A DNA stretch of 64,000 nucleotides from Catajapyx aquilonaris (taxonomy: Eukaryota), in contig JYFJ02000867.1 in assembly GCA_000934665.2 (NCBI GenBank), forward strand, positions 1 through 64,000. The letters run 5' to 3'. The notes under the pieces are model-generated. The model worked only from the letters and a program-made list of their open reading frames with translations, made no database searches and was not told the DNA's origin. This document shows, in pieces, positions 1,122-61,990 of the stretch. Within the stretch, counting starts at the first letter, position 1, and each line of letters begins with the position of its first letter. A program made the translations under genes and the position numbers.

Positions 1122-2063
1122 ATGGCTAAGAAAAGTTCTGCGGGCAGTAGTCTGCCCACTGAAGAAGACACTGCGGCGGACAGGGTCGGGAAGTTTCTGC
1201 GGGAGGAGTTCTTCACAAACCCCGAATCCATATGGTCAATGGAGGAGCTAGTATCCCTGGCAGACATAACGTGCGGCTCAGAAGAAGGATCGATGAAGGA
1301 TGTGAGTGATGGTGGTGGTGCAGCATTGTTTCTATACCTGACAAAATAATAATGAGTCTCTCTCAACCTCATATCATCCACAAAAAGGTGAGCAATATGT
1401 CGGTTGTCGGAGAAACTTCAGCCATGTTCACTCCAGTTGCGAAGGCGGCTCGCAACAAACTCGAGCTGCTCAAACTACTCAAGAAGCTGGATAGAAGTGG
1501 AGCTTGGCTCCAAGACGTGGTTCAGAGCATCCCTGACTCTGAGAATAACCTGTGGGTACGTTACACGCACTCTAAAGATATATAAGTACTGGACCTGTGA
1601 GACATGGAATAGTTTTGCGATCTGCGCACACATCATAATTATATATTCAATAATTATATTGGCTAGGCGTGATGAATTAGTCCCTATACGCGTTTGCTCA
1701 TCACCAACGTGCACGTATAGTTACCATGGGTTAAATAACATTCGCGTGGTTTTACAGAACATGAAGGACAAGGTGTTAATTGTGACTCGAACCGACGGTA
1801 GGAAAGTCCTGTTCAAAAACAACCGGATCGAAACACGAACAGTGGATGGAGATGTCGCCCGAATGTGGAGGTCAGTGGACCTGTCCTCACTTGGGGACGA
1901 AGAGATAGCACTTTGCCTGCAGACACCAGTAAGTTCGCACAAACAAAATGTGTACATACTAAAAGGACTGTGAGGTAACATATTGTTTTTTTTCCAGGGG
2001 TTTTGCGTCCCCGCAGGAAGCTCATACCGCACAGGCGACTGTGCACCTCCCTGGAGGATTTAA
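1122..2063 (+). CDS. Divergent transcription initiation factor IIE subunit beta (GTF2E2)-like protein, ~194 aa
   Basis: Exons 1122-1301, 1388-1555, 1758-1928 and 1998-2063, joined by phase-0 GT-AG introns; AATAAA at ~2115. The spliced peptide LLKLLKKLDRSGAWLQDVVQSIPDSENNLW|NMKDKVLIVTRTDGRKVLFKNNRIETRTVDGDVARMWRSVDLSSLGDEEIALCL aligns by eye to the second winged-helix region of TFIIE-beta (recalled human [51 protein letters not shown]). The start codon and last-exon frame are uncertain. Confidence 0.72.
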
Positions 2064-2302
2064 CAAAAATGCAGCAACGACCCCCAACTGTAACGACCCA
2101 AACAGTGTGGCTTCTAATAAAAATATACACCACTTTGTTCATACTGCTGTGTACTGTAGTAGCAGCAGTAACAAGTACAACAACAGCAACCAAATCCGAT
2201 AATAACAGTTTGAATTATCCGCCAGAATTGTCTATAACAGCATCATTGGTCTGAGCGGTATCAGCGCCTCTTTCGGCCATAAAGCGCAAATGTGTCGTAT
2301 CA

Positions 2303-2386: not shown

Positions 2387-4572
2387 ATGAAGCCGGATTC
2401 TGAAGCGGTGCGTCGGGTTGGATCGGTTCTGTCGGACAGGAGCAGGCCGATGAAGGAGAGGTTCAGGGCCCTGTTCACTCTAAGAGGGTTGGGCGGGGAG
2501 GAGTCCATCCAGTGCATCTCGTCGTGCTTCGACGACCCTTCGGCGTTGCTCAAGCACGAGCTGGCCTACTGCTTGGGGCAGATGGGGGACCCCAGGGCCA
2601 TACCAGTCCTCATACGAACCCTCGGGGACAAGGGCCAGGAGCCCATGGTCAGGCACGAAGCAGGTACACACCATACATTAACACCACACTAAATATAATA
2701 TTGTTTCAGGTCACAATTTTCAGTACTTTCGTTACTTACCTTACTTGCGTTAAATAATAATAATTATCCTCTGGGGAGGCATGGTGGTCTAGCGGTTACG
2801 CCACTGGCCAGCCAAGCGGGAGGCCGGGGTTCAAATCCCGTCCCCGTCACCTCTGCTTGGCCGGGTCTTTTTCCGCTTTTCACCCGACATGCCGACTCTG
2901 CTCGGGGCCAGGAGAAAAGGTCTGGTGTTTAAGAGGGTCTGCAACGACTAGAAACTACATGAGAGCGCCCTCCCTTGGGAAGCTCCCCTTCCCCCTACGC
3001 CCGTGGACCAGGGCGTTGCGACGAAACTATGTAAAATTGCAAAATAAATAAAGGTCCGTGTAATACCTCGAAAGAGGTCCGCACTACCCAATAATCCTCT
3101 ATATTAAATGTGATTACCTATTACACTTGTTGCACAACAATTGCGGATTTCAATTTTCGAATTGTGGATGCCAACTATAGGCGACTTACCCTGTATGTTG
3201 GAGAGATGCACTGCGGCTGCAAATTTTCATGCGCTGTTGAATAACTGGTGTGTTAGCCATGATTACATGCTTGTGTCAGCAATTGTTGCATAATTATGCC
3301 ATCTGTTATGTGGGGGCCTGCTAATTGGCATGCAGATTCTTCTAGCCCATTATTACCTGAATGTGCTGCACTGCATTAAAAAAGGTAGCGATCGCCTCAA
3401 GTGGAATCGGCGATGTTCCTTGGCCTTTGAATCCACAGCAAGTGAACCCTTTGCATAGTTTTGCAACGAGCTGAGATTTTGATTTCTCAAGATTTTCCAT
3501 TTCACTGGTTGGACCGCCTGGAACCAGACCGAAGCAGCATTTTGACATGTTTATTCCACCTTCATTGAGCATGCACAGTTGCTAAACCGGCATGTCAACG
3601 CCGCAGATCCTGCTCCAACTGGATTCAATTTCTGTTTTGCTAAAGTTGCATCCTTGCGACTGGAATTTGCATCCTAAACAGTCTTGTGAGATGCACCACT
3701 AATTAGATGTTACGGTACTCATTGGACAATCCGTGACACAATGATCCGACAAATTCACAGGAAGAACAGCGAATGTCTACGCTTCTGCATACATCACACT
3801 GCATTGTTCAAATATTTCATACTCACTTGTCAGTACAAGTTGGAAAAATTAAGTATTGAGAGTACAACTTCATGTTGCGTTTATTTGCAGGTGAAGCACT
3901 TGGAGCTATCGGATGTCCTTCAGTCTTGGATATTCTGAAGGAGTACAGCAACGATCCTGTGGTTGAGGTGGCTGAAACGTGCCAGTTGGCTGATAGACGG
4001 ATTGAGTGGCTTCAATCGCAAAAGGAAAGCACAATCCAAGGTCCCTTTCAGAGTGTGGATCCGGCTCCTCCGGCTCTAGAATCGAACGAGGAGTCACTGA
4101 AATCGGTGCTACTAAACGAGAGCCAGCCACTGTTCGATCGGTACAGAGCAATGTTTGCGCTTAGGAACAAAGGAGGCAAGGAAGCCGTGCTTGCACTGGC
4201 AGCTGGTAAGTTCCGCAAATTGTGTTAGTATAATGTCGGTTAACTTTCGCTTTATCCGAAGGTCTTAAGTGTGGTAGTGCACTGTTTCGTCACGAGATTG
4301 CATACGTGCTGGGACAGCTTCAGGATGCGGCCAGCATCCCACAACTGATTGAGAATCTGGCGGACTTGCAAGAGAACGAAATGGTGCGACATGAATGTGC
4401 CGAAGCGCTTGGTGCAATTGCTTCGCAAGAGTGCATGGACGTACTGAAGAAGTATGAATCTGACGAGAAGAGGGTGGTGAAGGAGAGCTGCGAGATAGCG
4501 CTGGACATGTGCGATTACGAGAACAGCTCGGAGTTTCAGTATGCTAATTCGTTGGCCCAGTTGGAAAGTTGA
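2387..4572 (+). CDS. DOHH: Deoxyhypusine hydroxylase, 300 aa
   Basis: Exons 2387-2663, 3891-4205 and 4262-4572 (two phase-1 GT-AG introns, 903 nt). HEAT-repeat protein with four His-Glu iron-binding motifs ([38 protein letters not shown]) and C-terminal EFQYAN. AATAAA at 4579-4584. Confidence 0.97.
2773..3093 (+). mobile_element. tRNA(Gly)-derived SINE in DOHH intron 1
   Basis: Pol III A box TGGTCTAGCGG and B box GGTTCAAATCC in a tRNA-Gly(GCC)-like head with a broken acceptor stem, followed by ~240 bp of body. Flanked by the direct repeat ATCCTCT (2766-2772 and 3094-3100), a candidate TSD. Confidence 0.75.
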
Positions 4573-5273: not shown

Positions 5274-8200
5274 TTAAGGCGATTCCTTGCGCTTGTTCTT
5301 CCGCTTCTTCGGTCTTTGCCCGCGTCGCCTTCTACCTTTGTCGTTCTTGGCGAATCCGCCAGAGGGGATCATGGACTGCGAGACCATGTTCGGATCCGAA
5401 CAGTTTAACCTCTTGAATATCCGCACCGCTTTCTTGAATGCCTGTAAAACAATAATTACAGCGAGATGCTACATAATGTAAGGCAAATTTTGTTAACATA
5501 CTCTAGAATTCTTGGCCCACGGCATGACAAACGACGGCACCAGAATGCCCGAGTGGTTGTGGCCCATGATCAGGAATGGACCTCGAGCCACCTTGCTCTC
5601 ACAGCAAGCGTCGTCTGCATCCAGACTAAAGATGGGTCGCCTCAAGCTCTTCAACTCGTCCTTCCTCTGGAAAGGGTGCTTGAAGATCTTGGCTTTGCGG
5701 CCAACCAGCTGCAGCTTCTTGCGACCGCGACGGATCCTGGTCCTAACCGCTGCAAAAATAACTGCAGTGAGTTGCAATGCAAAACGCTGAAGCCCGTAAA
5801 AATACTTGCCAAAATCAGCCCTGCAGAAATTGTCCAGGATGTTCTCGTACGTCTCCACTTGATTGCACGCAGTGCAACTCCCATCTGCAAAGACATACGT
5901 ATAGCATGATAAAGGGGCAATGTCCTTTGCAATGAAGCTTGTCCCATCCCACATATTTTCCCATACAAGTTGCTCCTTTTAAAAACCTCGTTAGGGTAAA
6001 CAACTCTGTTTTCATCACACCCTTAGGCTTTTAGCCATCCCCCCCTCTGGAAATTAGCAGGTTAGGAAAAGTGGTCCTTTTTGCCCAAAAGCTACAAAGC
6101 ACGCTAAGCCCAGGACCACACACACAATCCAAACTCACGCAATGCCTCAATCTTTAGTTTTCCCTCCAATCAATTTCTACGAAACGGCTCAGGTTTTGTA
6201 CACATCAATTAAATCAACAATAGGTTAAATTGCAGAATTACTGAAAAACTTTGGTGTTTATAATAATAAAAATATATAATAATAATATATAATAATAATT
6301 TATAATTATTGTTGTGTGTGGAATACACACGTAATACAAAATTAATAACAATAAAACAATGAATACAATAATGAATAATGCAAAATTAATAAGACAATGA
6401 AAGTAGAAAATAATTAATATGGTACAATAATGAATACAAAAGAAATACTACTGCAAATACAAAATAATGAAAAATGATTACTAATACACAATACTAACTA
6501 ATTATTAATAACTAATAAAATAATAGATAAAACCTACAAAATAACTGATAAAAATTAATAGTAATAAGTAACTGGTAAAAATTAATAGTAATAAGTAACT
6601 GATAAAAATTAATAGTAGGGTAGGCTAATAAGTAACTGATATAATAATTAATAAGTAATAGTAATAAATAACTGATATAACAATTATTAATATTAATAAA
6701 TAACTGATATAATAATTAATAAGTAATAGTAGTAAATAACTGATATAATAATTAATAAGTAATAGTAGTAAATAACTGGTAAATTATTAGTAATAAATAA
6801 CTGATAAAATTAGTAATAACTGATAAAATACAATTATAATTAATAACAATCTTAGATCAATTATTATAAGAGGCAAAGTTTGTTGGTTCATTTCGTACCG
6901 ATTGGGTACAGTCAAAGTTTGATTGCTTGTTGTATACAAGTACGTGATGTGACAATTTAATTTTTTCTTAATCTGTGGTTGTTCCATCAGGCCAGGTGAC
7001 TCGAGCAAGCTTGCTAGAGACGACAACTGCGTTTCTCGTAGTTTTTTTTCTTCTCCTCTGATTTTTCTATTGCTTAACGGTGCCTGCAGGGCTACCCTGG
7101 ATAATACTCGACTTCATCTCGATTCACCTCCCAAATGGTTATAATCAAGGCTCCCAAATTGCAGCCTTGGAAACACACAACCTGAGGGCAAACCTTTAAA
7201 AAAAATAAATGATGATTCCATGTCAACAACCATGTTTTCAGTTTCAATTATTTTCATGTCTATATACCTATATAGACATTGTCATTGCAGGGTTTTTTAA
7301 CTCTCCAAATATTTGATCGACCCCTTCCCACAGATTAAAGCTGGAGATTAGTCCAGGCCACGCCCACCTAATAAACGCGTTTGTCTGGTCTTTTTTGAAG
7401 CCCACGTCCTTGTGTGGCCCTCCTCCACCACCACTAGTTTAATATGTGACAACCTCTCCCCCTCATGGCCCTCTCTAACCAACTCTGATCCGAATTATTC
7501 ACATCCTGCCAAATGGGGATGAGGAGGATGAGAATAGGAAAAAGGAAAAGAGGGACAGACCCAAGTCCCCTCAGGGGACAGCCCCTCTCAAAACAGGCTC
7601 TTTTTGTCTTTTTTTTTTTTGAAAAAGGAGAAGGATACTTTTTAAATGGTCTCTAATCATTCCCACCCTGTTTTTCACTCACAGTTTAGGCTATAGTAGC
7701 CCTCCCCCTCTTTTATTTTGGCTAAGGGTTGATTTATGGAGACAGGTTTCCGAAGGGGACTTCCTACTATTATCCCTTGGCACATTTTAAGACCCTCACA
7801 TGGACGAACAACGCATCTTCATTATTGTAAAAGGCAAAGTTTGATTTGCTGTTTGTCCAGGTTTTAATAGTCCATCCTATGGAACGCATCTACATATACT
7901 TATAAAAGACAAAGTTTGTTTGCTTGTTCAGGTTTGGATTAAGATCAATGTCATACCCGTTTCATGCCCATTTTGAGATGCAGATGCGTCTTTTTCTCCC
8001 CAAAAATGAGGCTTCAGCAACAGACTGAACCTGTGTGTTAAATGGAAAGCCAAGCATTGTTGAAAGGTAGTGTCGAGTATATAGAGACTTGTATAACTGG
8101 GGGTCTGGCAAAGTCTCTTCAAAAGTGTCAAGTGAGAAGTTGCAGGACCAGTTTTATCTCGCTCATCTTTGTGCTGGTTTGGAGGTTGGAGGGTGTAACA

Positions 8201-10256
8201 CCAACAGACGTGGGCCTGTCAAAAGTGGTGGGGTGGGGGAGGGCCACCGGGAAGCTGCTTCTGTCCAGTTGACAACCGATGACGGACAAAGATTACCCCC
8301 ACACTTTTTTTTTGTTGTCGTGTCTGTGCAACTATATAACAATCCATCGAATCTTGACTTATTGACTTGTTTCGTGCCAAAGTGCACTGAACCTGATTGC
8401 AACCGGTTTCTTAAAAAGAATGCGAGGAAAATCCTTCCGCATGTTTTGCTCACAACAATCTGGTTGGACTTACAACATTTTGGTGCACCTAGACACACTC
8501 GGCAACCTGGTTGATCACCACCTAGATCCACCAAGTCAATTAAGGTTAAAAAAAATGGCACTTGGCAAAATGGCAAAGCCACAATAACGTCCGTTGGCCC
8601 GATCCACCAACGGGCAAATTGGGAAAGCCACAATAACGTTCGTTGGGCTGTGGCGCACAATGCAGTCAGCGCCTATTAAAATCATCACTGGACCGTGCCT
8701 GGCATGGCCGCAAGACCGACATCGACAGTGCTGGTGCGGTCACCAAAAATCCATACAGATGACACCAACATCTCTCTCCGCCCCGGGGCCGCCCAGGGTA
8801 TGTATATAAGATTGGTTATACACATGCGACTTTGTCCCTTCTGTAATTATGACGATGATTTGAAAGTTAACAATAGAGAGACGAATGGGGTGACTCATCA
8901 TGTGGGGGGTTGGACATGTGCCAATCACTTTGGTTGTTGGGGAGGGCACCTTCTTGACACACTCCATTCACCCTTGGCATTTGACCGCATAATGATGGCA
9001 GCTGGATTCATCAGCTTTGATGGGAGGGGGCTTTAGAGGGACATGCTGTGGGGAGAGCAGCTGTCAACCCTTGATGACCTTTTTAGTCCTGGCCTCCCCC
9101 GTTTCTGTCAAGTTGTCACTTGTCACTATATGCATGGTGGCACGTCAATTTAAGGGGTGTTATAGAAACAGGTTCTCTGGATCTGTCCCCCACCAAGTTT
9201 CATCTCAGCAGACCTTACAAGGCAATCCGGATTATTGGGGGGAGGGTGACGTAACGTCGTTACTTACTGGGCGTGACCTGTGCCCCTGCCTGCTGCCTTA
9301 TGCACATGTCGTTGTCCAACGGGAATCGGTCGCACCTGAACATGTCGGGCCAGGGGAATCCGTAGGTCTTCATCCGGACCTCGCATCCGGTCTGGACCGC
9401 CTGGCAGAGGCTGCGACAAGGGTAGATGGGCCTGTCCAGACACACCGGACTGAACAGGGAGCACAGGAACAGCTGGGTGTCCGCGTGGCATCGGACGTTC
9501 AGGAGAGGTACCCACGACCTGGCCTGCTGGGACACCTCCGCCATCGTGTCGTGCTCCAGGAGGTTTGGCAGGCGCATCTGTGTACCGGACACATCGGAAT
9601 CACATTTACTCGAGAGAAAAAGAAGTAACTATAGCTGCGCTAAACTCAGTAAAAATACTGTATATCTGCACTTCTGCAGTAAGCTATGAAAAAAGGACGG
9701 ATCTCCATGAGACTAAGGAAAAAGACGTAACTCTCATTGTCAGTAAGGCCGTATCTGCATCAGACTCTGTAAAAAGGCCCCATCTCCATTATAAGGGAAC
9801 AACTTCCCATCTGCATTATACGAATGGAAAAAGGCGTAACTACGTTAAAATAAAAAAGGCCGTATCTTCAGTGCACTGAAAAACGACGTATCTCCACGAG
9901 ACAAAGGAAAAACGTCCTATCTGCATCATACTAAGGAAAAAGATGTAAGTGCGTCAAACTCAGCAAAACGGACCTATCTGCACTAAACTCAGTAAAAACG
10001 ACATATGTCCATTAGACTAAGGAAAAAAACGCCATATCTACATTTAGAACCCCTTCGTACAGTGTATGTGGTATACCTTGGTGTATCCGATCCCATGGCA
10101 GAGTGACATGTTGGCCGGTATGTCGACGCACGTGGGCTGCGCTGCCCTTCCTCCGGACACGCTCCAGTCCACATAGGAGGTGGAGGATGACGCGGCGGAA
10201 GAAGAAGACACAACTACGTCAGTCATGAAGAGCAACAGACCGCCGAGTCCCCACAT
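5274..10256 (-). CDS. SFRP: Secreted frizzled-related protein (sFRP1/2/5 type), 326 aa
   Basis: Exons 10256-10077, 9577-9268, 5884-5810, 5749-5502 and 5441-5274 (981 nt, phases consistent). Hydrophobic N-terminus, Frizzled CRD (CVDIPANMSLCHGIGYTKMRLPNLLEHDT..CHADTQLFLCSLFSPVCLDRPIYPCRSLC..FPWPDMFRCDRFP) and netrin/NTR domain (CTAC..NFCRADF..CC..LNC). No transmembrane helices. Intron 3 is GC-AG. Confidence 0.95.
6270..6850. repeat. AT-rich low-complexity/degenerate tandem repeat in sFRP intron 2
   Basis: Repeated TAACTGATA(T)AA..TTAATAAGTAATA units. Confidence 0.8.
9600..10045. repeat. Degenerate ~27-bp minisatellite filling sFRP intron 1
   Basis: Recurrent AAAAGGCCGTATCTGCATCAGACT-like units throughout the intron. 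Confidence 0.65.
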
Positions 10257-16100: not shown

Positions 16101-17758
16101 ATGTTGACAAACCCTGCACCAAAAATTCAGTTGCTGATTGGGTAGTTACTCGTGTTATAATCACCAGAACAAGGATAGCCCCATTTGTAAATTCAACTGC
16201 GATAAAGGCAAGAAACAAGTGTCGACGGACAAACAAATTTGGTGCGCGACATTGCCCCACAATGCCAAAAAACCTGATTTCAACACCTTCTCGACGCGAC
16301 GAAAGCCAAGCCAAGTTCTGTTTTCTTAACAAAGATGAGTCACTTTGTGCAGGTTGAGCGGGAGGCAAAACACAAACAGTCTCTTCCACACTCAAGAGCT
16401 GGATCCCGTCCAAAAAAAGCCACGTGTACCAAAATTTTGTCATGCACCAAGCTTACTCGCAGGGTCGACAACACAAAGAAACACCAGATAATCGTATGTC
16501 TACAAGTAATAAAACGGAAATGTCCAACACGTGGCGACGCGCACACATTTTTGGAAAGTTCCACATCCGCAAAATGTCAAACCTACTTAAAAAAGAATGC
16601 ACACAAACAGAACTGAGGTATTTGTTGACAATTCAGGTTTGTTTACCATGACAAATTAGCTCGAAATAATTCCCGACACGAATTCTCCAGTGCCATGTGC
16701 ATATTTGCTGTCAGTATGACGTCCCTGCGAGTTGTACATTTAATAATTAAAAATAAGTAATGAGGCAAATATAATCATATCGTTGCCATTATGTGAAACA
16801 AGTGTATTAAGCGGACTGATTTTAATTGATTTTAATTTAAGTACAACAATAGGTTCAAGATGGGGCTTCCACGACTTAAACCGTAATGAATGTGAGCCGA
16901 AGTTTAAGTCGCTGTGACCGAGTCTTGATTGCTTGTTCTCTAGTGTAATTGAACCTTACGTACTAGTTTTCACACATTTTACAGCTGAAGTGAAGCCGTG
17001 TTTACATGTATCGCTGAGCAAAAGTAACAATCATTGTAATATATTTTCCTCCCAAACAATTGGTCTCATCGCTGCACATTGCTGATCAAAACGCTCATGT
17101 ATGTAAATGCGGCTTACTGCTGTTTACTCCATTTTCAAATTGCTGATTAAAATGCAACAGTTGATCATATGCATTGATTACATAAACTGTGCATATGGGC
17201 TTCCACTGAGCAGAAACTGACCATGCAAGGTGGTGATGGACTTGTGTGAGGTTACAAGGTGAGGCATGACTTGCTCCAGGGAACCTTGCCACTTGCAGGA
17301 CGCTCCGGGGCAGGGACAAGAGTAGGGCCTGTGTTCGCAGGTCTCCTCGTGGTCCGCCTTTTCCGTGTGGAGGAGCAGTGCAGTGCAACCGGACGCCGAG
17401 TACTTGCATGGAAACATCACAGTGCTTGCCACCTTCTCCATTGCCAGATTACGAATGTTACCTGCATGAAAAATTGCGGAATATCAGCAAGCAATTCCTT
17501 TACCAGGGGCTTATCTGGATACTGACCCAATGGCCCACGGCAAGTGGGGCAGCAGGTGAGCTTCGGCCTGCAGTTTGAGCAGACGAGATGGCCGCTCTGG
17601 CACTGCAGTATCGGAGGAAGGACATAGTCGAAGCAGACGGGACATTCGAAGAAGCTGGCCAGGTCCGTGGTGTTGGTGGGAGCCACAGACACAGAGGACG
17701 CTGCGCCTCCGGACAGACCCCTCCGCTTGGAGGGGTTGGATCCCACCTGACCACTCAT
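13191..17758 (-). CDS. SIAH: E3 ubiquitin-protein ligase Siah/seven in absentia, 280 aa
   Basis: Exons 17758-17527, 17461-17222, 15557-15365 and 13368-13191 (843 nt). [45 protein letters not shown] zinc fingers, and substrate-binding domain ([56 protein letters not shown]). A splice acceptor 3 nt upstream of the ATG implies unlocated 5' UTR exon(s). Confidence 0.97.
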
Positions 17759-19769
17759 GATCTGGAAGGAGAATCGGGGGAAATTAAGTCATCTGCCGAC
17801 AATTTGAAATCATTACGACACTTCGATTAACACAATTTTGAAAACGATGAATAGCCAGTGCCTCCCACTTGCTCGACACCTGTTTCTTATTTTTAGTTGA
17901 GGGCAGCGACTCTTTGGATGTGTCATCGTTGGGTGGGATCAGGGACAGAGAAAAGGCAGTTACGTTATGGTGGGGAAGGTATTTTTGAGCGTCTTATTGC
18001 CCAATGGAGGCTGCGACAAAAATATACTCTTGTCTTTTTTCATGAATAGAGTCCTTTAAAGGTAATGGCATGCAATCATTACGAAAATACGAAGAAACTG
18101 TTTACTTAGCGAACATTTTACATTCCTTGGATTCGCTTCAATGTCACCATGTGATCGTTTTGAACCTTGCAATACCGGCGCCATTGACAAAAATGAACCA
18201 AAAGCTGTACGGCCACTCTTATTCGATATATAATAAAATGTGATAAGCTGCACTTATCAACATGACGTAAGCGATTGAACATTACCAGTAACTTACAAGC
18301 GCTACTCCTTGAGGTCTGATGAGTGAGGCGTTAAACATCCTTCTGATCAGTTTACTACCGCACGTTGTCTAGGAACAAAACTTTAAAAAGCCAACAATCA
18401 TCGCATGTCCTAGCAACCTGTTGCCAAGTAAACATTCCGACCTCAGACTGTCATTCAATGCAACACATCATTAGCTCAACACGCCTCATTAACAATGCAT
18501 GTTCAACATATATTAATTACCTGTCCAATTTGAATCATTGTCCGTACAGCTTCCTCAGACATATTATTTAGGCTTCTAATCCGACACGTTTGAGCTGACC
18601 TTGACTCCATCGTTGAGTGGGGAGGATAGGTTAGTTCGATTATGACGTAACATGCTTTTTAAAATTATATAACCTACATATTTTTAACGAGTTGGACGAA
18701 AAACCTCGATTATTCAATAAGCCAGGGATCATCTTCCGCAGCATGTAATTTCTTTTACAAGGTTCCCTCTCCTAAGTCGTGACAAGATCAGCTGATGGGG
18801 AATGGTGATTCGTTCTGACTTGTCCTCATGAATAAGAAACCCATCAGGTAAATTCCACTGCGCTTTGATGCCAGATGAGATAAGGGTTGCGACAACTGCT
18901 CAGAGAAGGATGGCTACTTGGAGGCATCCCTAATGATTCACACAGTCTGGCCAACTCTTCGGCTCTTTCTCTATATTTAAATCGTGCAGCATATCATAAC
19001 ATAGGTCCAATTTAACAACTGAATTTTTTGTCGCAGCCAATACCAAACGATGTTACGATTTTGTCAGTATTTGGTCGGTTGACACAAATATCTAGTTGCA
19101 GCGAATTGGTTAACAACCCTCCGGTGTGCTACTTCCGAAATGACAGCCCCAGTTTACTGTAGGTCTGAAACAGAACCACCAGTACTATATATTTTACAAT
19201 TTGGCAGCAGGATATGTTTGAAACGAGGTCGAGGTATGTCCTCACATGTGACCATGCTTTAAAACCATCTCCCCATTGTTAGCACCTGTAATTCATAACA
19301 AAGCGGAATGGCTACAGTCACTTTGCAGTGATAAAAATCAAGGGGCAGAATATCTCGAGATGTAACAATAACAGGCATATCTCAGGCCCATTTACTTTTG
19401 TGACCACAAGTCTAGCCCTTAGAGTAAGTCTCCCAAGACCTGACCTTCGCAACAGAAACCTTGCCTTTGCCGTATAGCGAATTTTCACTTGCTGTTTGCA
19501 CTCTCAGCATTGCAATAATTGAGTCATTTACACTCCTAACGTGGATTTTTCCTGCCATTTTAGTCCATTTACGAGCCAGGAAGCCAGGATTTTCATGTAA
19601 ACAAATGCAAGGTCATTGCTTTGAATTACCTAAAAACTGGGTTGTTAGACTTATTTCATAATGTAGGCAAAAGATATGATAGCGTAAACATGTTTTAATG
19701 ATTTTATAATCATGAACAAGGAAAACTTGGTGACTTTTCTTTACAGCGATGCCTTACGGCATGATCTGG

Positions 19770-24242: not shown

Positions 24243-27200
24243 CTACTTGGGAACTAGCCCTCTTGGTTGAGGATAATTGGCATCCTTATTCTTTGGTCTG
24301 AAAGTGAAAATAATTGCATAAGTACAGTGGCATAAATGTCATTTTTGTTGTTGTGGAAATGTACCTGGGCTTTTCCTTGCGTATTCCTTTCACCCTCGCG
24401 TTGCTGGCGAGCTGTGCGAAACTGGCGTCAATGTCGATGTCCGCTTCCAGCTCGGTCAGAGCGTTAAAAAGCGCGGCCTGCACCCTGGCGTTGACGACTG
24501 GACCCTCGTACTCTCGAGTGGTTTTAGTGGCCAAGTCGAGGTCGAACTGCATGATGTTTTCGCCCTTGTATCGTGACGCGCCTTGCATCCCCATGTTGGC
24601 GGCCATACGCGCGTACTCCGAGACAGGACGCCGTGCCCCTGACGCCGAGACAGGTCTCTTGGACATGAGCGACTGGTGAGGGGACGACGTGGAGGTGACG
24701 GTGCTGAGCGGCAGCATCTTCCACTGGTCCTCCTCCTCATCATACCTTTGCGTAATGTAAAGGCAATGTTTATTAACAACTCTGTAGAATCTGAACAATC
24801 ACATTATTGCACAGAGCCATACCGTAGCCGTGTGGTGACCTTGGCCTTCTCCTCCGGCGGAATGAAGTTCTCGATGATGAGGTACTTCAGCTTCAGATCC
24901 TTCATGAGGGTATCCTGGGTCATCTCGAGCTCCCGGCGGTCGGTGCTGTAGTCCTCACTCAGATCGTTGATCTCGCTCTTCGTCTGCTGCAGTTTGGACA
25001 ACATCCTCTTCAGCTTGCGTGTCTTCAGCTCCACCTCTTGTTGCAGGGAGGTGTACGTCTCCCGGATCTCCACGGTCGTCTCCTCACGTTCCTCCAGCTG
25101 CTGACACATCTCACGCTCCTTCCTCTGTTGTCAAGGAAAAGTTTCGGTAAGGACATCCCATCCCGCCTGGACAAATTCACTACCTTTTGCTCAGCTATCT
25201 CCTGCCGCCTCTGTTCTAGCGCCCGCTGCTGCTCGTTAGTGTGGTCGATGATGTTCTTTCCTCCGGACAGAAGCTTGCTTTCCAGCGACGTGATCTTCCC
25301 CGCAAGGTTCTCCTGGGACTCCCGCTGCTTGAGGAGCTGCTCCTCTTTTGTACGCAACTCCTGGATGAGCTGCTCCTTCTCCTCCGTTATATGTTCACTC
25401 CCCAGTGCCTCAGCATCTTCCGCTAATTCCGCACCCACATTGCTGTCCTCCTGCAGAAACATATTTAATTGCACATGCTCGTAGAAAAAACATTGCCAAT
25501 TATCACCTGTATGTCCTCCTCGGTGCTGATGCTCTCGTCACTCTCCTCCCCCTTGTGATGCTTATGCCGTTTCCCCTTTTTCTTTGCGGTTCCCTTTTGC
25601 GCCAAAGACGCCTTCAGCCTGGCAATCTCCTGCTGAAACTCCCTGAGGAGGGCATCCTTGGGGTCCTCATTGATGCGAGGCTTGTTCTTGATGTTCTTGG
25701 CCCGATTGGCGTAGCGCAGTGTGGTCAGAGTCTCGTCGTAGTTGTAGCTGGCCGGGCCGATGTTGGCCACCATCACTGTCTTGGCGTTTCCACCCAGGGA
25801 GTCCTGCAGCAGGCGGGTCAGCTTTGAGTCGCGGTAGGGAATGTGCGTGTTCTTCCCGTCCACCAGGGCGGATATCACGTTGCCCAGAGCGGACAGGGAC
25901 AGATTGATCTTGGTCGCCTCCTTCAAACGCTCGCCCTGTTGTAAGAATAAAAGCAGCAATTAAACTGCTGCTACGGCAGATTTGGGATGCGGATTGGCCT
26001 TACCGAAGCACCTGTCTTTGCTTGACGCTCACTCCCTGCGAGATCAACTAGATTGAGCTTCCCGACCCTGATGTGGTTCTCCCCGTCGATACCAATCTCA
26101 CTGCACTCGATGGTGATGATGAAGATGGCATGGGAGCGGCTACTGTGCTCGTTCATGTTGGTGGCCCCCACAGATCTGTTCTGGTTTCCGACGCTCATGA
26201 CGTGCTCAATCTCGTTAGCGCTCTTGCACACGAAGGTGGACAGATCGCGGACATACACACCGGTGTCAGGCCGTTCCTTCAGTTCCAATCGCTTGGTCTG
26301 ATCCTTACAGAGGAGGTCGCGGATTTCCTCCTGGTATATCTCAAGGTAGGAAGTGCGGAGGAGGTACTGCTGATTCTTGGAGCGGGCAATGTGGTTGAAG
26401 ATGTGGTCAAACGAGTGGGGGATCACACCCTTGCGCTCCGGATCACTTCGGATACCTGTGGGATTTCACAAGGTCATTAGCTGGCTTCCACCGCATAAAC
26501 TTTAAAACTTACCCTCCATCGTGTAAGTCTTTCCAGTTCCAGTCTGTCCGTAAGCAAATATAGTCCCGTTGAACCCAGTGAGTACGGAATCTACTAGAGG
26601 CCGGAATGTCTCGTCGTACAAATCCAGCTGTTTGGAACTGAAAAATGCAGACGTACAATATTACATTCTGACATATAGTGAGGACACTATGCAAAATCTT
26701 ACTTCCAATCGTAGACAGCGTCAAAAGTGAATTGCTTTGGATGCTCCGAACCATGTCTGGTATTCTTCAGCTCAATCACACCTCGATCTGGCCACATCTC
26801 CAGCACTCTGCGAATGTTTAAAATTTCGGTTAGCACAATCATGTCCTGCAACGAAATTTCTATCGCTGTTAAGATCCTCACCGATCGTATCCCTCAGCCA
26901 CTTCCTTCTCATTCATGGGGCGACACCTCACCACCACTTTCACACTCTCCGAAACGGCTGCCTTGACTGGGCGAGACTGTTGAAGTAAAGCTCAGTTATG
27001 AAATTATATAGTACACCATGCAATATTTGCTTGCTCTGTACCATGCAGCTGTACTAAATTAAATATGAATTATTATGTAATGCAGCTAATAGTTCGCTAC
27101 CATATAGAACTACGTGATGCTAACATAGAAACATGCGATGAAGACACTTTAATGTGAGGCGATGTGCTACGGAATCATGCCATGCACTGTGCCATGCAAA

Positions 27201-29889: not shown

Positions 29890-32800
29890 TTAAAGGCCAA
29901 ATGCCCAAACGATTTTGGTGTACTGTATGTTGGGTGAGAGGGGGTGGGGTTGTTCTGATAGTTCCGGTATATGCCACTGATGTCGATAGCTGGCAGTGCC
30001 TAATCGGAGGCTAGCGCTTCTAGCTTTGAAAATAGATGGCGTTGAATTGGCGCGGTTTGTTCGAAAACACGCTTGAAAAGTACCAAAAAACATGCAAGTC
30101 ATTGTTAATGCCAACCGTGAAAGCTGCGCGAACTGTGGTGCGCATTCCGTTTGCACTCGTAAAAAAATTCACATACAGGGTGATCCAACTTTATCGCCCC
30201 TACAGTTATTGGAAAAATCGCTCAAGTTGCTATTTTTTAAGCAGCTACTTGCTAAGAGTTACTTTCTCGAGTATCTGTAATAGCACCTGCTGATATTAGG
30301 TCCTATGCCTATGCATAGTACCAATTAATGACCTATTTATTGACACAATCGGGTCTGTCCGGTTCGACAGATTAATCAGATGGATAATATTATCCATCTG
30401 ATTGGCAGTTAGTGACCTCATCTGAATCCCTCCAGAGAACACCAAAATGGGCCCTCTTCAAGGCCAACACATGAATCAGTTTGGAGGTGAGGAAATAAAA
30501 GGGATGATGGGCACCTTTCCACTTCAGGGTCGCAACAGTTCGCATCCGACCATTTGCGATTGACCCATTTGGCCAGCCCTCTGATTGACAGCTAGTGACC
30601 TCATCTGAATCCCTCCAGTGAACACCAACACATTAATCAGTTTGGAGATGAGGAAATAAAAGAGATGATGACTCCTTTCCATTTCAGGGTCGCAACAGTT
30701 CGCATCCATACCCCTCGCGATACACCCATTTGGCCAGTCACAACCCGGCAGACGACCTGTTTCCCACAGGTGACCCTTTTTCCCCCCTCATTAATTGGTA
30801 CATGGGCATTGGACCTAACATCAGCAGGTGCTATTCCAGACTCTCGAGAAAGTAACTCTTAGCAAGTAGCTGATTAAGAAGTAGCAGCTTACGCGATTTT
30901 CACCATAACTGTTGGGGCGATAAAGTTGGATCACCGTGTATAAATATACAGTACCGTGTACAATATCATTACAGTCTCTCGGCCTGGAAAAGTATGTACA
31001 GATTGTGTAAGTTACTGCCAAATTTTAAGAGCATCTGCTATCATCTACATTCCCTACCAGTAGACAGTTGGAAAGTTTACCTGTGTTTCTGCGGGCCTTC
31101 CTATCAGTGCTTGAGCTGCAAACGAATGATGGGACCAGATGAAGTCATTTTGTTCCATATACGGTAATTATAAGATTAGGACGCACCTGATTTCGTCAGA
31201 CTTCACCAGCATACTTTCTAGTGCACTGAGCGAATCCGACTTGCTTGGTGTGGTCACCACGACGTCCCTGAAAGTTATACGATAACACGATGTCAAAACA
31301 TGTCTGTGCCTCCCTTTGTCCGCGTGTAGATGCGCCATCTATGTGAGACATGTGGTACTAATACACAACTTACGTAGGGTCCGTGCATTCCTCGACTCCG
31401 ACTTCTTCTAGAGATATGGCCTCCAGATCGCACGACATGCTGGACCATTCGTCGAGTCTCTTCTTCGACGACCTTTTCTCCTCATCCTCCAGCAGGTCAA
31501 CTTGCGGAATGCAATCGATGGCCTCTGATTCGTCTGATGGTCTCTTGCTGGACATTTCCTTGTCCGATTCCAGTCCCCTGAGCAGCAAATTCGCAGCTTC
31601 CCACACCAGCTCGTAGGAGTAGTTTGGCTGCTGGTCCTGGACAGCAGCTTCTTCCTCTTCATCGTGGAACTCGGGAAGTTTGTGTGTGTCTTCAGTGTGT
31701 GGTTCTTGGACCAGTTTCTCCACCAGGTCCTGGTCTGTCTCCTGGCTAGGTTCCGTGTCGGAATTTTGTCCTGGAGCTGTGATGAACTGCTCCTGGGCAG
31801 GTGCTTGTTCCAACTCCAGGTCCTCAATGGCAACGATGGTGTCGTCCGATTCGTCAAATGGGTTGAACTGTATGGGATACTCGGTGAGACGGTGGTCATC
31901 GTTGTCCTCTTCTTTTTCCATCCGGTTGTTGTACGCTTCTTCTTGGAACCTGGACCTGAGCCTGGCCATCAGATCAGGGCTCCTATAGGTGCAGAAGGAG
32001 ACGACAGCATGTATGGCCATACAGCACACATTATTTTTGATAGCACTTACTTGAGAACCTCGAGGGTCTGGAAAGCTCTGGCGACCATCACCGCAACACG
32101 TAGCGGTTCCTTTGGCTTCCTGGGAAACGCCGCGATTTTTGCCCTCCTGAAACGCATATTTGAGGGAAGGGGGGGGGGGGGCGTGAAATTGGTTTAAAAA
32201 TCCTCGACTCTATTTTTCCTGAGAGGCTTTGTAAATAATGTACTGTAGGTGTCGGCAGCGCAAAAAGTTTAGCAGGCTCACGGGGGCCCGGCAGGTGTGA
32301 AATTAGTTTTCTACTGCGGCAACAACAGTTTTTACAATTTTTTAAAAAACCGGACGCGGTCAGGTCGCATTATAGTATTTTCTCCGCCTCTGCTGTATAC
32401 TAGTATACAGCCACGTTATTGACCAACACACAACTGGATCGCGGAAAAAATTATAGAGCTGTAGTTTCGCTGTACAGCAACATAATTGACTGACCTTCTC
32501 CTGTGCACCCAATCGCGTATGTCCCTCTTCAGCCACCACCTCCGGACAGGGGGCATGTCCTGCTCGTACCTGGACTCCAAGATGAGCTGAGAGGACTGGG
32601 TCGGGCTCAGGAGGACCTGTCGAGTCATGGACTGGGTCGCAGGCTCGAGCTGGTACAATCCGTTCATCTTTTGGAGAGGGGGAAAATGAGTTAAAAAAAA
32701 AAATCATTGCTTTCAATGAGAATTGCAATATGAAATTACCTGTTGAGATGCGCTTCTGAAGAGAAGCTTGGACGGATCCAGCTCCTGTACCAGCGGAGAA

Positions 32801-61801: not shown

Positions 61802-61990
61802 GACCGAATCAGGTTGGCATAGTGGATAAGGCGTCCGACTGCTAATCGGGAGGTCCTGGGTTCGAATCCCGGGGCCGGCAACCTTGACTGTGGTTTTCTG
61901 TGGTTTTCCATGGTCTTTCTAGGATAATTCCGGGGTCGCTTCCGTATAATAGGCCACAGCCGCTTCCTTCCTTCCCTATCCTTGGAGGTT
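61802..61990 (+). mobile_element. tRNA-derived SINE (second family)
   Basis: A box TGGCATAGTGG (61815-61825), B box GGTTCGAATCC (61859-61869) and an anticodon-like loop CTGCTAA. The body GTGGTTTTCTGTGGTTTTCC..AGGCCACAGCCGCTTCCTTCC resembles the conserved body of arthropod tRNA-SINEs, from memory. Confidence 0.78.

Follow-up and report, generated by a model that had tools for sequence, protein, structure and literature searches.

A divergent TFIIE-beta-like gene in Catajapyx aquilonaris and its possible role as a core-only paralog

The present analysis concerns a four-exon gene close to the start of a 64-kb stretch of Catajapyx aquilonaris DNA (hereafter the window), the predicted product of which is a homolog of TFIIE-beta. 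From sequence comparison this homology is established by the third exon, i.e. by the wing of the second winged helix (WH2) together with its C-terminal extension, and the composition of exons 1 to 3 is coding-like. From our point of view there is about an even chance that the gene represents a real, still-coding, lineage-specific and fast-evolving duplicate of GTF2E2 and not the only TFIIE-beta of the animal, with paralogy and expression as the parts of this reading that we infer. The original prediction, which had been made from the DNA letters, spoke of a highly divergent yet intact-looking TFIIE-beta paralog, and of this description the homology, the divergence and the intact look hold, with 36% identity in the best exon, four open exons and a coding signal in exons 1 to 3.

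Gene model and similarity to TFIIE-beta

Read from the sequence, the ATG at 1122 opens a frame on the plus strand that continues through four exons to a TAA at 2061-2063, and the spliced product comprises 60 + 56 + 57 + 21 = 194 residues (Table 1). All three introns have a GT donor and an AG acceptor and lie in phase 0, and the AATAAA that follows the stop is the only one within 337 nt downstream of it. The four phase-consistent exons with a downstream polyadenylation signal, which had been proposed beforehand, are hence borne out, and the four TFIIE-beta-like peptides that had been quoted with them are all present in the exons. The exon borders were, however, picked by a reader in search of an open frame, which inflates the apparent intactness of the gene. 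The polyadenylation signal and the start of the DOHH gene at 2387 leave no room for further 3' exons. No second copy of the spliced product was detected by tblastn within the window, the next-best matches having E values of 2.4 and 3.6, and no homology was found for the tail encoded by exon 4, which is where the model is least certain.

Table 1. Coordinates of the TFIIE-beta-like gene and of other coding features in the window
Feature	Position	Strand	Description
Exon 1	1122..1301	+	Start codon, 60 codons (P0001); donor GAT/GTGAGT at 1302
Intron 1	1302..1387	+	86 nt, phase 0, GTGAGT...AAAAAG
Exon 2	1388..1555	+	56 codons (P0002), open frame; donor TGG/GTACGT
Intron 2	1556..1757	+	202 nt, phase 0, GTACGT...TTTTACAG
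Exon 3	1758..1928	+	57 codons (P0003); homologous to TFIIE-beta WH2 wing and C-terminal extension
Intron 3	1929..1997	+	69 nt, phase 0, GTAAGT...TTTTTTTTCCAG
Exon 4	1998..2063	+	21-codon tail and TAA; least certain part of the model
TFIIE-beta-like gene, span	1122..2063	+	Predicted product of 194 residues
AATAAA polyadenylation signal	2116..2121	+	53 nt 3' of the stop
DOHH gene	2387..4572	+	Three coding exons, ~2387-2663, 3891-4206 and 4250s-4572; AATAAA at ~4580
SIAH-type RING finger ORF	17420..17788	-	Sina_RING, E 1.4e-17
Kinesin motor domain	25468..26465	-	Two exons, E 3.7e-38 and 6.8e-48; weak Kinesin_assoc match

Similarity searches of the databases were run exon by exon with the contiguous translations; in the spliced protein, exons 1 and 2 would each contribute a part of the first winged helix (WH1), and WH2 would be interrupted by intron 2. 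With the 57 residues of exon 3 as query, a phmmer search of the PDB (177,635 distinct sequences) returned two matches, both of which are human TFIIE-beta, namely 5gpy_B (E 4.1e-6, 29.7 bits), titled TFIIE-beta in the PDB table, and 29vf_X (E 1.5e-5), a 291-residue chain that is found in 43 entries. Residues 3-52 of the query are aligned with positions 186-234 of the 291-residue human protein, 18 of 50 being identical (36%), and after correction for the four PDB searches the match still has an E value of ~2e-5. In the excerpt of the review by Schier and Taatjes (PMC7111264) that deals with this arrangement, WH2 and WH1 of TFIIE-beta are described to span the Pol II cleft, and the C-terminal extension of WH2 is described to touch the clamp coiled-coil of RPB1. 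Given this contact, the conserved piece encoded by exon 3 would be a functionally central one.

The picture for the first two thirds of the product is different in kind. Exon 1 alone gave no match in the PDB, and the one match of exon 2 alone was not TFIIE-beta but a designed helical protein (E 1.4). Among the five exon and ORF pieces that were compared with Pfam at E<=10, the TFIIE-beta families (PF02186, TFIIE_beta; PF18121, TFA2_Winged_2) were not represented, the only matches being to APH-like_N (E 0.22 and 0.11). In the protein atlas, exon 2 had no usable match, and exon 1 yielded sub-threshold leads to DUF6958, DUF3860 and DUF2582 (best three scores 0.75-0.77), the last of which we take to be a winged-helix family; what exons 1 and 2 have in common with likely relatives is limited to common low-complexity words. 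The earlier proposal that the peptide tracks both winged-helix regions of TFIIE-beta is therefore upheld for the WH2 wing and extension but not for the first winged helix, whose proposed match would fit collinearity and length, exons 1 and 2 alone being without a TFIIE-beta match.

Three weaker observations would fit a WH1-WH2 core in collinear order. Residue 3 of exon 3, which is number 119 in the product, aligns to residue 186 of human TFIIE-beta, so that on the N-terminal side about 67 residues are lacking in comparison with the human protein, as would fit the loss of the N-terminal region only. Single-sequence AF2 models predict helices at residues 18-30 and 40-50 for exon 1 alone (pLDDT 68.7) and at residues 16-33 and 39-46 for exon 2 alone (pLDDT 65.5), in both cases at the low confidence of an isolated fragment, and the atlas leads of exon 1 point in the same direction.

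Coding signal, missing termini and surroundings of the gene

Codon usage was scored with a model trained on 549 codons of confident exons in the window, i.e. those of DOHH, the kinesin motor and the SIAH RING finger. In the proposed frame, exon 1 scores +0.19 bits/codon (-0.37 and -0.20 for the two remaining frames), exon 2 +0.13 versus -0.17 and -0.39, and exon 3 +0.15 versus -0.53 and -0.27. Intron 1 scores -0.69 to -0.78 over the three frames and intron 2 is negative in all of them; taken together, the introns of the gene range from -0.43 to -1.16, and the known exons, scored in a leave-one-out manner, from -0.04 to +0.50. The whole CDS scores +0.12 bits/codon. When 3000 segments of 585 nt were drawn at random from the window, 0.5% of them attained this value. 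The GC content of the CDS is 52.6% versus 38.1% in the introns. Exon 4 behaves differently in that its proposed frame (-0.16) scores below both of the others (+0.18 and +0.45), which makes the C-terminus of the model uncertain.

Canonical TFIIE-beta bears a C-terminal basic region. The Catajapyx product ends 21 residues past exon 3, and as this tail holds only two lysines or arginines, the C-terminal basic region is missing from the model; as a whole, the product is slightly acidic (25 K+R versus 29 D+E). The best-scoring frame of exon 4 is a basic one, with six K+R in 21 residues (start 2000, within 1998-2254 on the plus strand). It cannot be reached from the canonical splice sites that are present, stays open to 2254 and passes through the polyadenylation signal without a stop, and it gave no match in the PDB at E<=10. 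One could speculate that this frame is a relic of the basic C-terminus of an ancestral TFIIE-beta, but it may equally be noise from 21 codons. With regard to the other end of the protein, no N-terminus of the MDPxLLRERE type turned up when the six frames of the window were searched with a regular expression, in agreement with the original prediction, which had noted that the canonical start was not visible. The gene begins 1121 nt from the window edge, and additional upstream exons may lie beyond it.

The 1.1 kb upstream of the gene consist mostly of an AT-rich 20-nt tandem repeat, such a repeat lying at 605-800 (period ~20 nt, up to eight copies, ~320-520 nt upstream of the ATG), and a GC-rich inverted repeat is found at ~500-545, just before it. 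On the other side, DOHH follows directly downstream on the same strand, and its best matches, with identities of up to 74% among those listed, are spread over several phyla. Within intron 1 of DOHH, a stretch at 2770-2850 (+) looks tRNA-like by eye and may form the head of a SINE of tRNA origin; neither ARAGORN nor Rfam at its gathering threshold called a tRNA there, and no second copy of the 301-nt stretch 2760-3060 was found in the window. A further tRNA match lies far downstream at 61815-61872 (+), where Rfam reports 36 bits over model positions 8-63 of 71 and ARAGORN calls none, and this is probably a tRNA-derived repeat or pseudogene. The window also contains long open frames (at most 279 residues) at 31373-32209 (-) as well as at 8071-9876 and 24289-25537 (both strands), several of which overlap on opposite strands. 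None of them matched a Pfam family at E<=0.001 in a scan that covered 44 of the 65 window ORFs of at least 110 residues, and they could represent genes that lack an annotation, repeats or non-coding DNA of high GC content.

Paralog, ortholog or relic

Relatives of the gene were sought in protein and metagenome collections with exon 3. A word-indexed protein search with this exon (contained in ORF 1392-1970, residues 120-181; lengths 106-338) brought up four candidates, none of which reached E<=10. The exhaustive phmmer comparison with 1.84 billion representatives gave four matches at E<=0.001. These are proteins of 722-1192 residues with three to six matched stretches each, two of them being WD40/beta-propeller proteins, and as none of the four carries a TFIIE-beta Pfam family, we rejected them as chance similarity summed over repeats. 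In a library of this size, a 29.7-bit match corresponds to an E value of ~0.04, and canonical TFIIE-betas are therefore not expected among the results. The metagenome scan reduced 591 pattern matches to a single locus, which was likewise discarded: at its positions 2246-2338 the high-GC bacterial contig holds the eight residues VDGDVARM in a frame that is not coding, next to an ABC-transporter-like ORF, which makes this a chance match.

The neighbouring DOHH gene provides a measure of how fast the lineage evolves. Its first exon is identical to human DOHH (4d4z_A, E 4.1e-50) at 56 of 86 positions (65%) and to the DOHH proteins of other animals at 57-74% (n=120 matches listed), with corals, crabs, moths and a ray at about 70-74%, from which the rate of the lineage appears ordinary, if not rather slow. 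As the best of the listed matches does not exceed 74%, the lineage is also thinly sampled, and the lack of TFIIE-beta-like relatives hence says little. Identity to human is thus 65% for DOHH versus 36% in the best exon of the adjoining TFIIE-beta-like gene. In section 21 of PMC4824122, TFIIE-beta is described as single copy and strongly conserved. A canonical TFIIE-beta should be recognisable over its full length in a lineage such as this, which the present gene is not, and a diverged duplicate is favoured over a sole ortholog. It is this comparison of rates from which paralogy is argued, and it applies to a duplicate that would still be coding, for which the chances are about even, as well as to one in decay, which is less probable.

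The latter possibility, a non-functional GTF2E2 copy that has lost its termini, drifts without selection at the protein level and is open by chance, is in our opinion unlikely, though it is the rival that has to be taken most seriously. It would explain the extreme divergence, with exons 1 and 2 unrecognisable, and the disappearance of the C-terminal basic region along with the poor codon score of exon 4, where the basic and better-scoring alternative frame could be the original C-terminus after a frameshift; the relatives that would reveal conservation were, moreover, not found in the protein and metagenome searches. It has to account, however, for 194 stop-free codons in four exons with six intact splice dinucleotides in spite of 36% identity in the best exon, for a codon signal in exons 1 to 3 that is specific to the frame, and for the GC contrast between exons and introns. 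A frameshifted relic is also difficult to reconcile with a basic frame that has no PDB match and runs through the polyadenylation signal without a stop. That the gene is instead the only TFIIE-beta of the animal, i.e. a fast-evolving and shortened ortholog, possibly with 5' exons beyond the window start, we consider improbable. The neighbouring DOHH is as conserved as in other slow-evolving animals, with 65% identity to the human protein and as much as 74% to those of corals, crabs and moths. One would not expect a sole essential subunit to have lost its basic C-terminus and to be beyond recognition in two thirds of the sequence, and the 1.1 kb upstream are an AT-rich tandem repeat without coding signal. 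These points stand against the facts that the window holds no other copy, that the distance to its edge is short enough for upstream exons to lie outside, and that the lineage is, by the best DOHH identity among the matches listed, poorly sampled.

Two further explanations are weaker. A core-only protein might act as an antagonist, i.e. bind TFIIE-alpha or Pol II and block initiation as a natural dominant-negative, and the retention of the WH2 wing and extension segment in a slightly acidic protein (25 K+R versus 29 D+E) that is devoid of the C-terminal basic region would suit such a function. The germline paralogs of general transcription factors that are covered in section 21 of PMC4824122 are, however, treated there as activators or alternative machinery and not as inhibitors, and we regard an antagonist as quite improbable. 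Hardly credible, finally, is a chance resemblance without any kinship to TFIIE-beta, in which the exon chain would be an artefact of picking open frames. While the significance is limited to one stretch of 50 residues, and the false metagenome match in a bacterial contig illustrates how short motifs can mislead, the E value of 4.1e-6 is calibrated, both PDB matches are the same protein, the exon 3 match sits in the frame and order predicted by the gene model, and the codon-usage signal falls in the proposed frames.

A core-only TFIIE-beta in the light of known systems

If the gene is a still-coding duplicate, its 194 residues would form a core-only protein of approximately the two winged-helix domains and a short extension behind WH2, from which the long N-terminal and the C-terminal basic regions of the canonical 291-residue TFIIE-beta would have been lost. 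The retained WH2 wing and extension would dock on TFIIE-alpha and on the Pol II clamp, and the protein could in this way substitute for the canonical subunit where a variant pre-initiation complex assembles in a restricted cell type, for which the germline would be the likeliest candidate by analogy. Without the basic C-terminus, downstream steps of initiation would be altered or weakened. The comparison with human TFIIE-beta (GTF2E2, 291 residues; 5gpy_B, complexes 5iy6-5iy9, 29vf and others) can be read in both directions. Exon 3 aligns at the WH2 wing and extension, and order and spacing of the remaining product fit a WH1-WH2 core, whereas the product is shorter (194 versus 291 residues, with about 67 N-terminal residues gone), slightly acidic and without the basic C-terminus, and no similarity can be recognised in its first two thirds.

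Germline paralogs of general factors are known, with the TFIIA-L paralog Moonshiner, ALF and TBPL2 as examples. Like the tTAFs of Drosophila, these are TFIID or TFIIA factors, and their expression and function are proven, whereas for the Catajapyx TFIIE-beta-like gene both can so far be suggested only by analogy. The tTAFs are cited in section 21 of PMC4824122. All of these paralogs follow the same logic as is proposed here, in which a duplicated and fast-evolving basal factor gives rise to a cell-type-specific initiation complex.

The direct precedent for an additional TFIIE-beta comes from the Diopsidae. In the part of their article that treats the basal machinery, Baker et al. (2016, PMC4824122) report two, four and three copies of TFIIEbeta in three species of stalk-eyed flies versus one in Drosophila and Anopheles, and nearly all basal-machinery duplicates of these flies are highly expressed in testes (section 21). 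The statement of the original prediction that there is no well-described example for TFIIE-beta is contradicted by these duplicates. Paralogy and testis expression are documented in the flies (PMC4824122, same section), whereas for the Catajapyx gene both are proposed; the portion of the report that concerns the TFIIE-beta duplicates comes without a mechanism. Beyond the stalk-eyed flies, the papers listed by our literature search on TFIIE or GTF2E2 paralogs and germline or testis duplicates contained no other animal case. Lineage-specific paralogs of general factors are therefore known as a kind of gene, and it is the reduction to the core that would be the notable feature here, provided that the gene is a paralog.

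More distant systems contribute less. Archaeal TFE-beta and RPC39/C34 of Pol III are, according to the excerpt of PMC4495717 on these proteins, winged-helix proteins that are related to TFIIE-beta and pair with a partner resembling TFIIE-alpha. They are far more remote than the human protein and carry an Fe-S domain (PMC4495717, same excerpt), and neither was among the PDB matches of exon 3. For Paramecium, TFIIE is described as undetectable by similarity search in the corresponding excerpt of PMC12716044, in which paralogs are not mentioned.

Overall, the TFIIE-beta-like locus is a good candidate gene for annotation, and a variant pre-initiation complex appears to be a reasonable hypothesis. 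It is possible, although we put it forward tentatively and with more doubt than confidence, that a slow-evolving invertebrate employs, next to a canonical GTF2E2, a minimal core-only TFIIE-beta without the Ser-rich N-terminus and the basic C-terminus, which would pair with TFIIE-alpha in a variant Pol II complex, probably in the germline. Within the Pol II initiation machinery, TFIIE is commonly viewed as a component that is invariant and present in single copy, and to our knowledge it is only for TFIID and TFIIA that variants specific to a cell type are well established. If real, an additional TFIIE-beta of reduced size in an unrelated, slow-evolving animal would mean that TFIIE is open to specialisation as well, and it would be a TFIIE-level counterpart of the tTAFs, ALF and Moonshiner outside the insects. 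From the absent termini one would learn what TFIIE-beta can do without in at least one mode of initiation, and the gene would provide a natural definition of a minimal functional TFIIE-beta.
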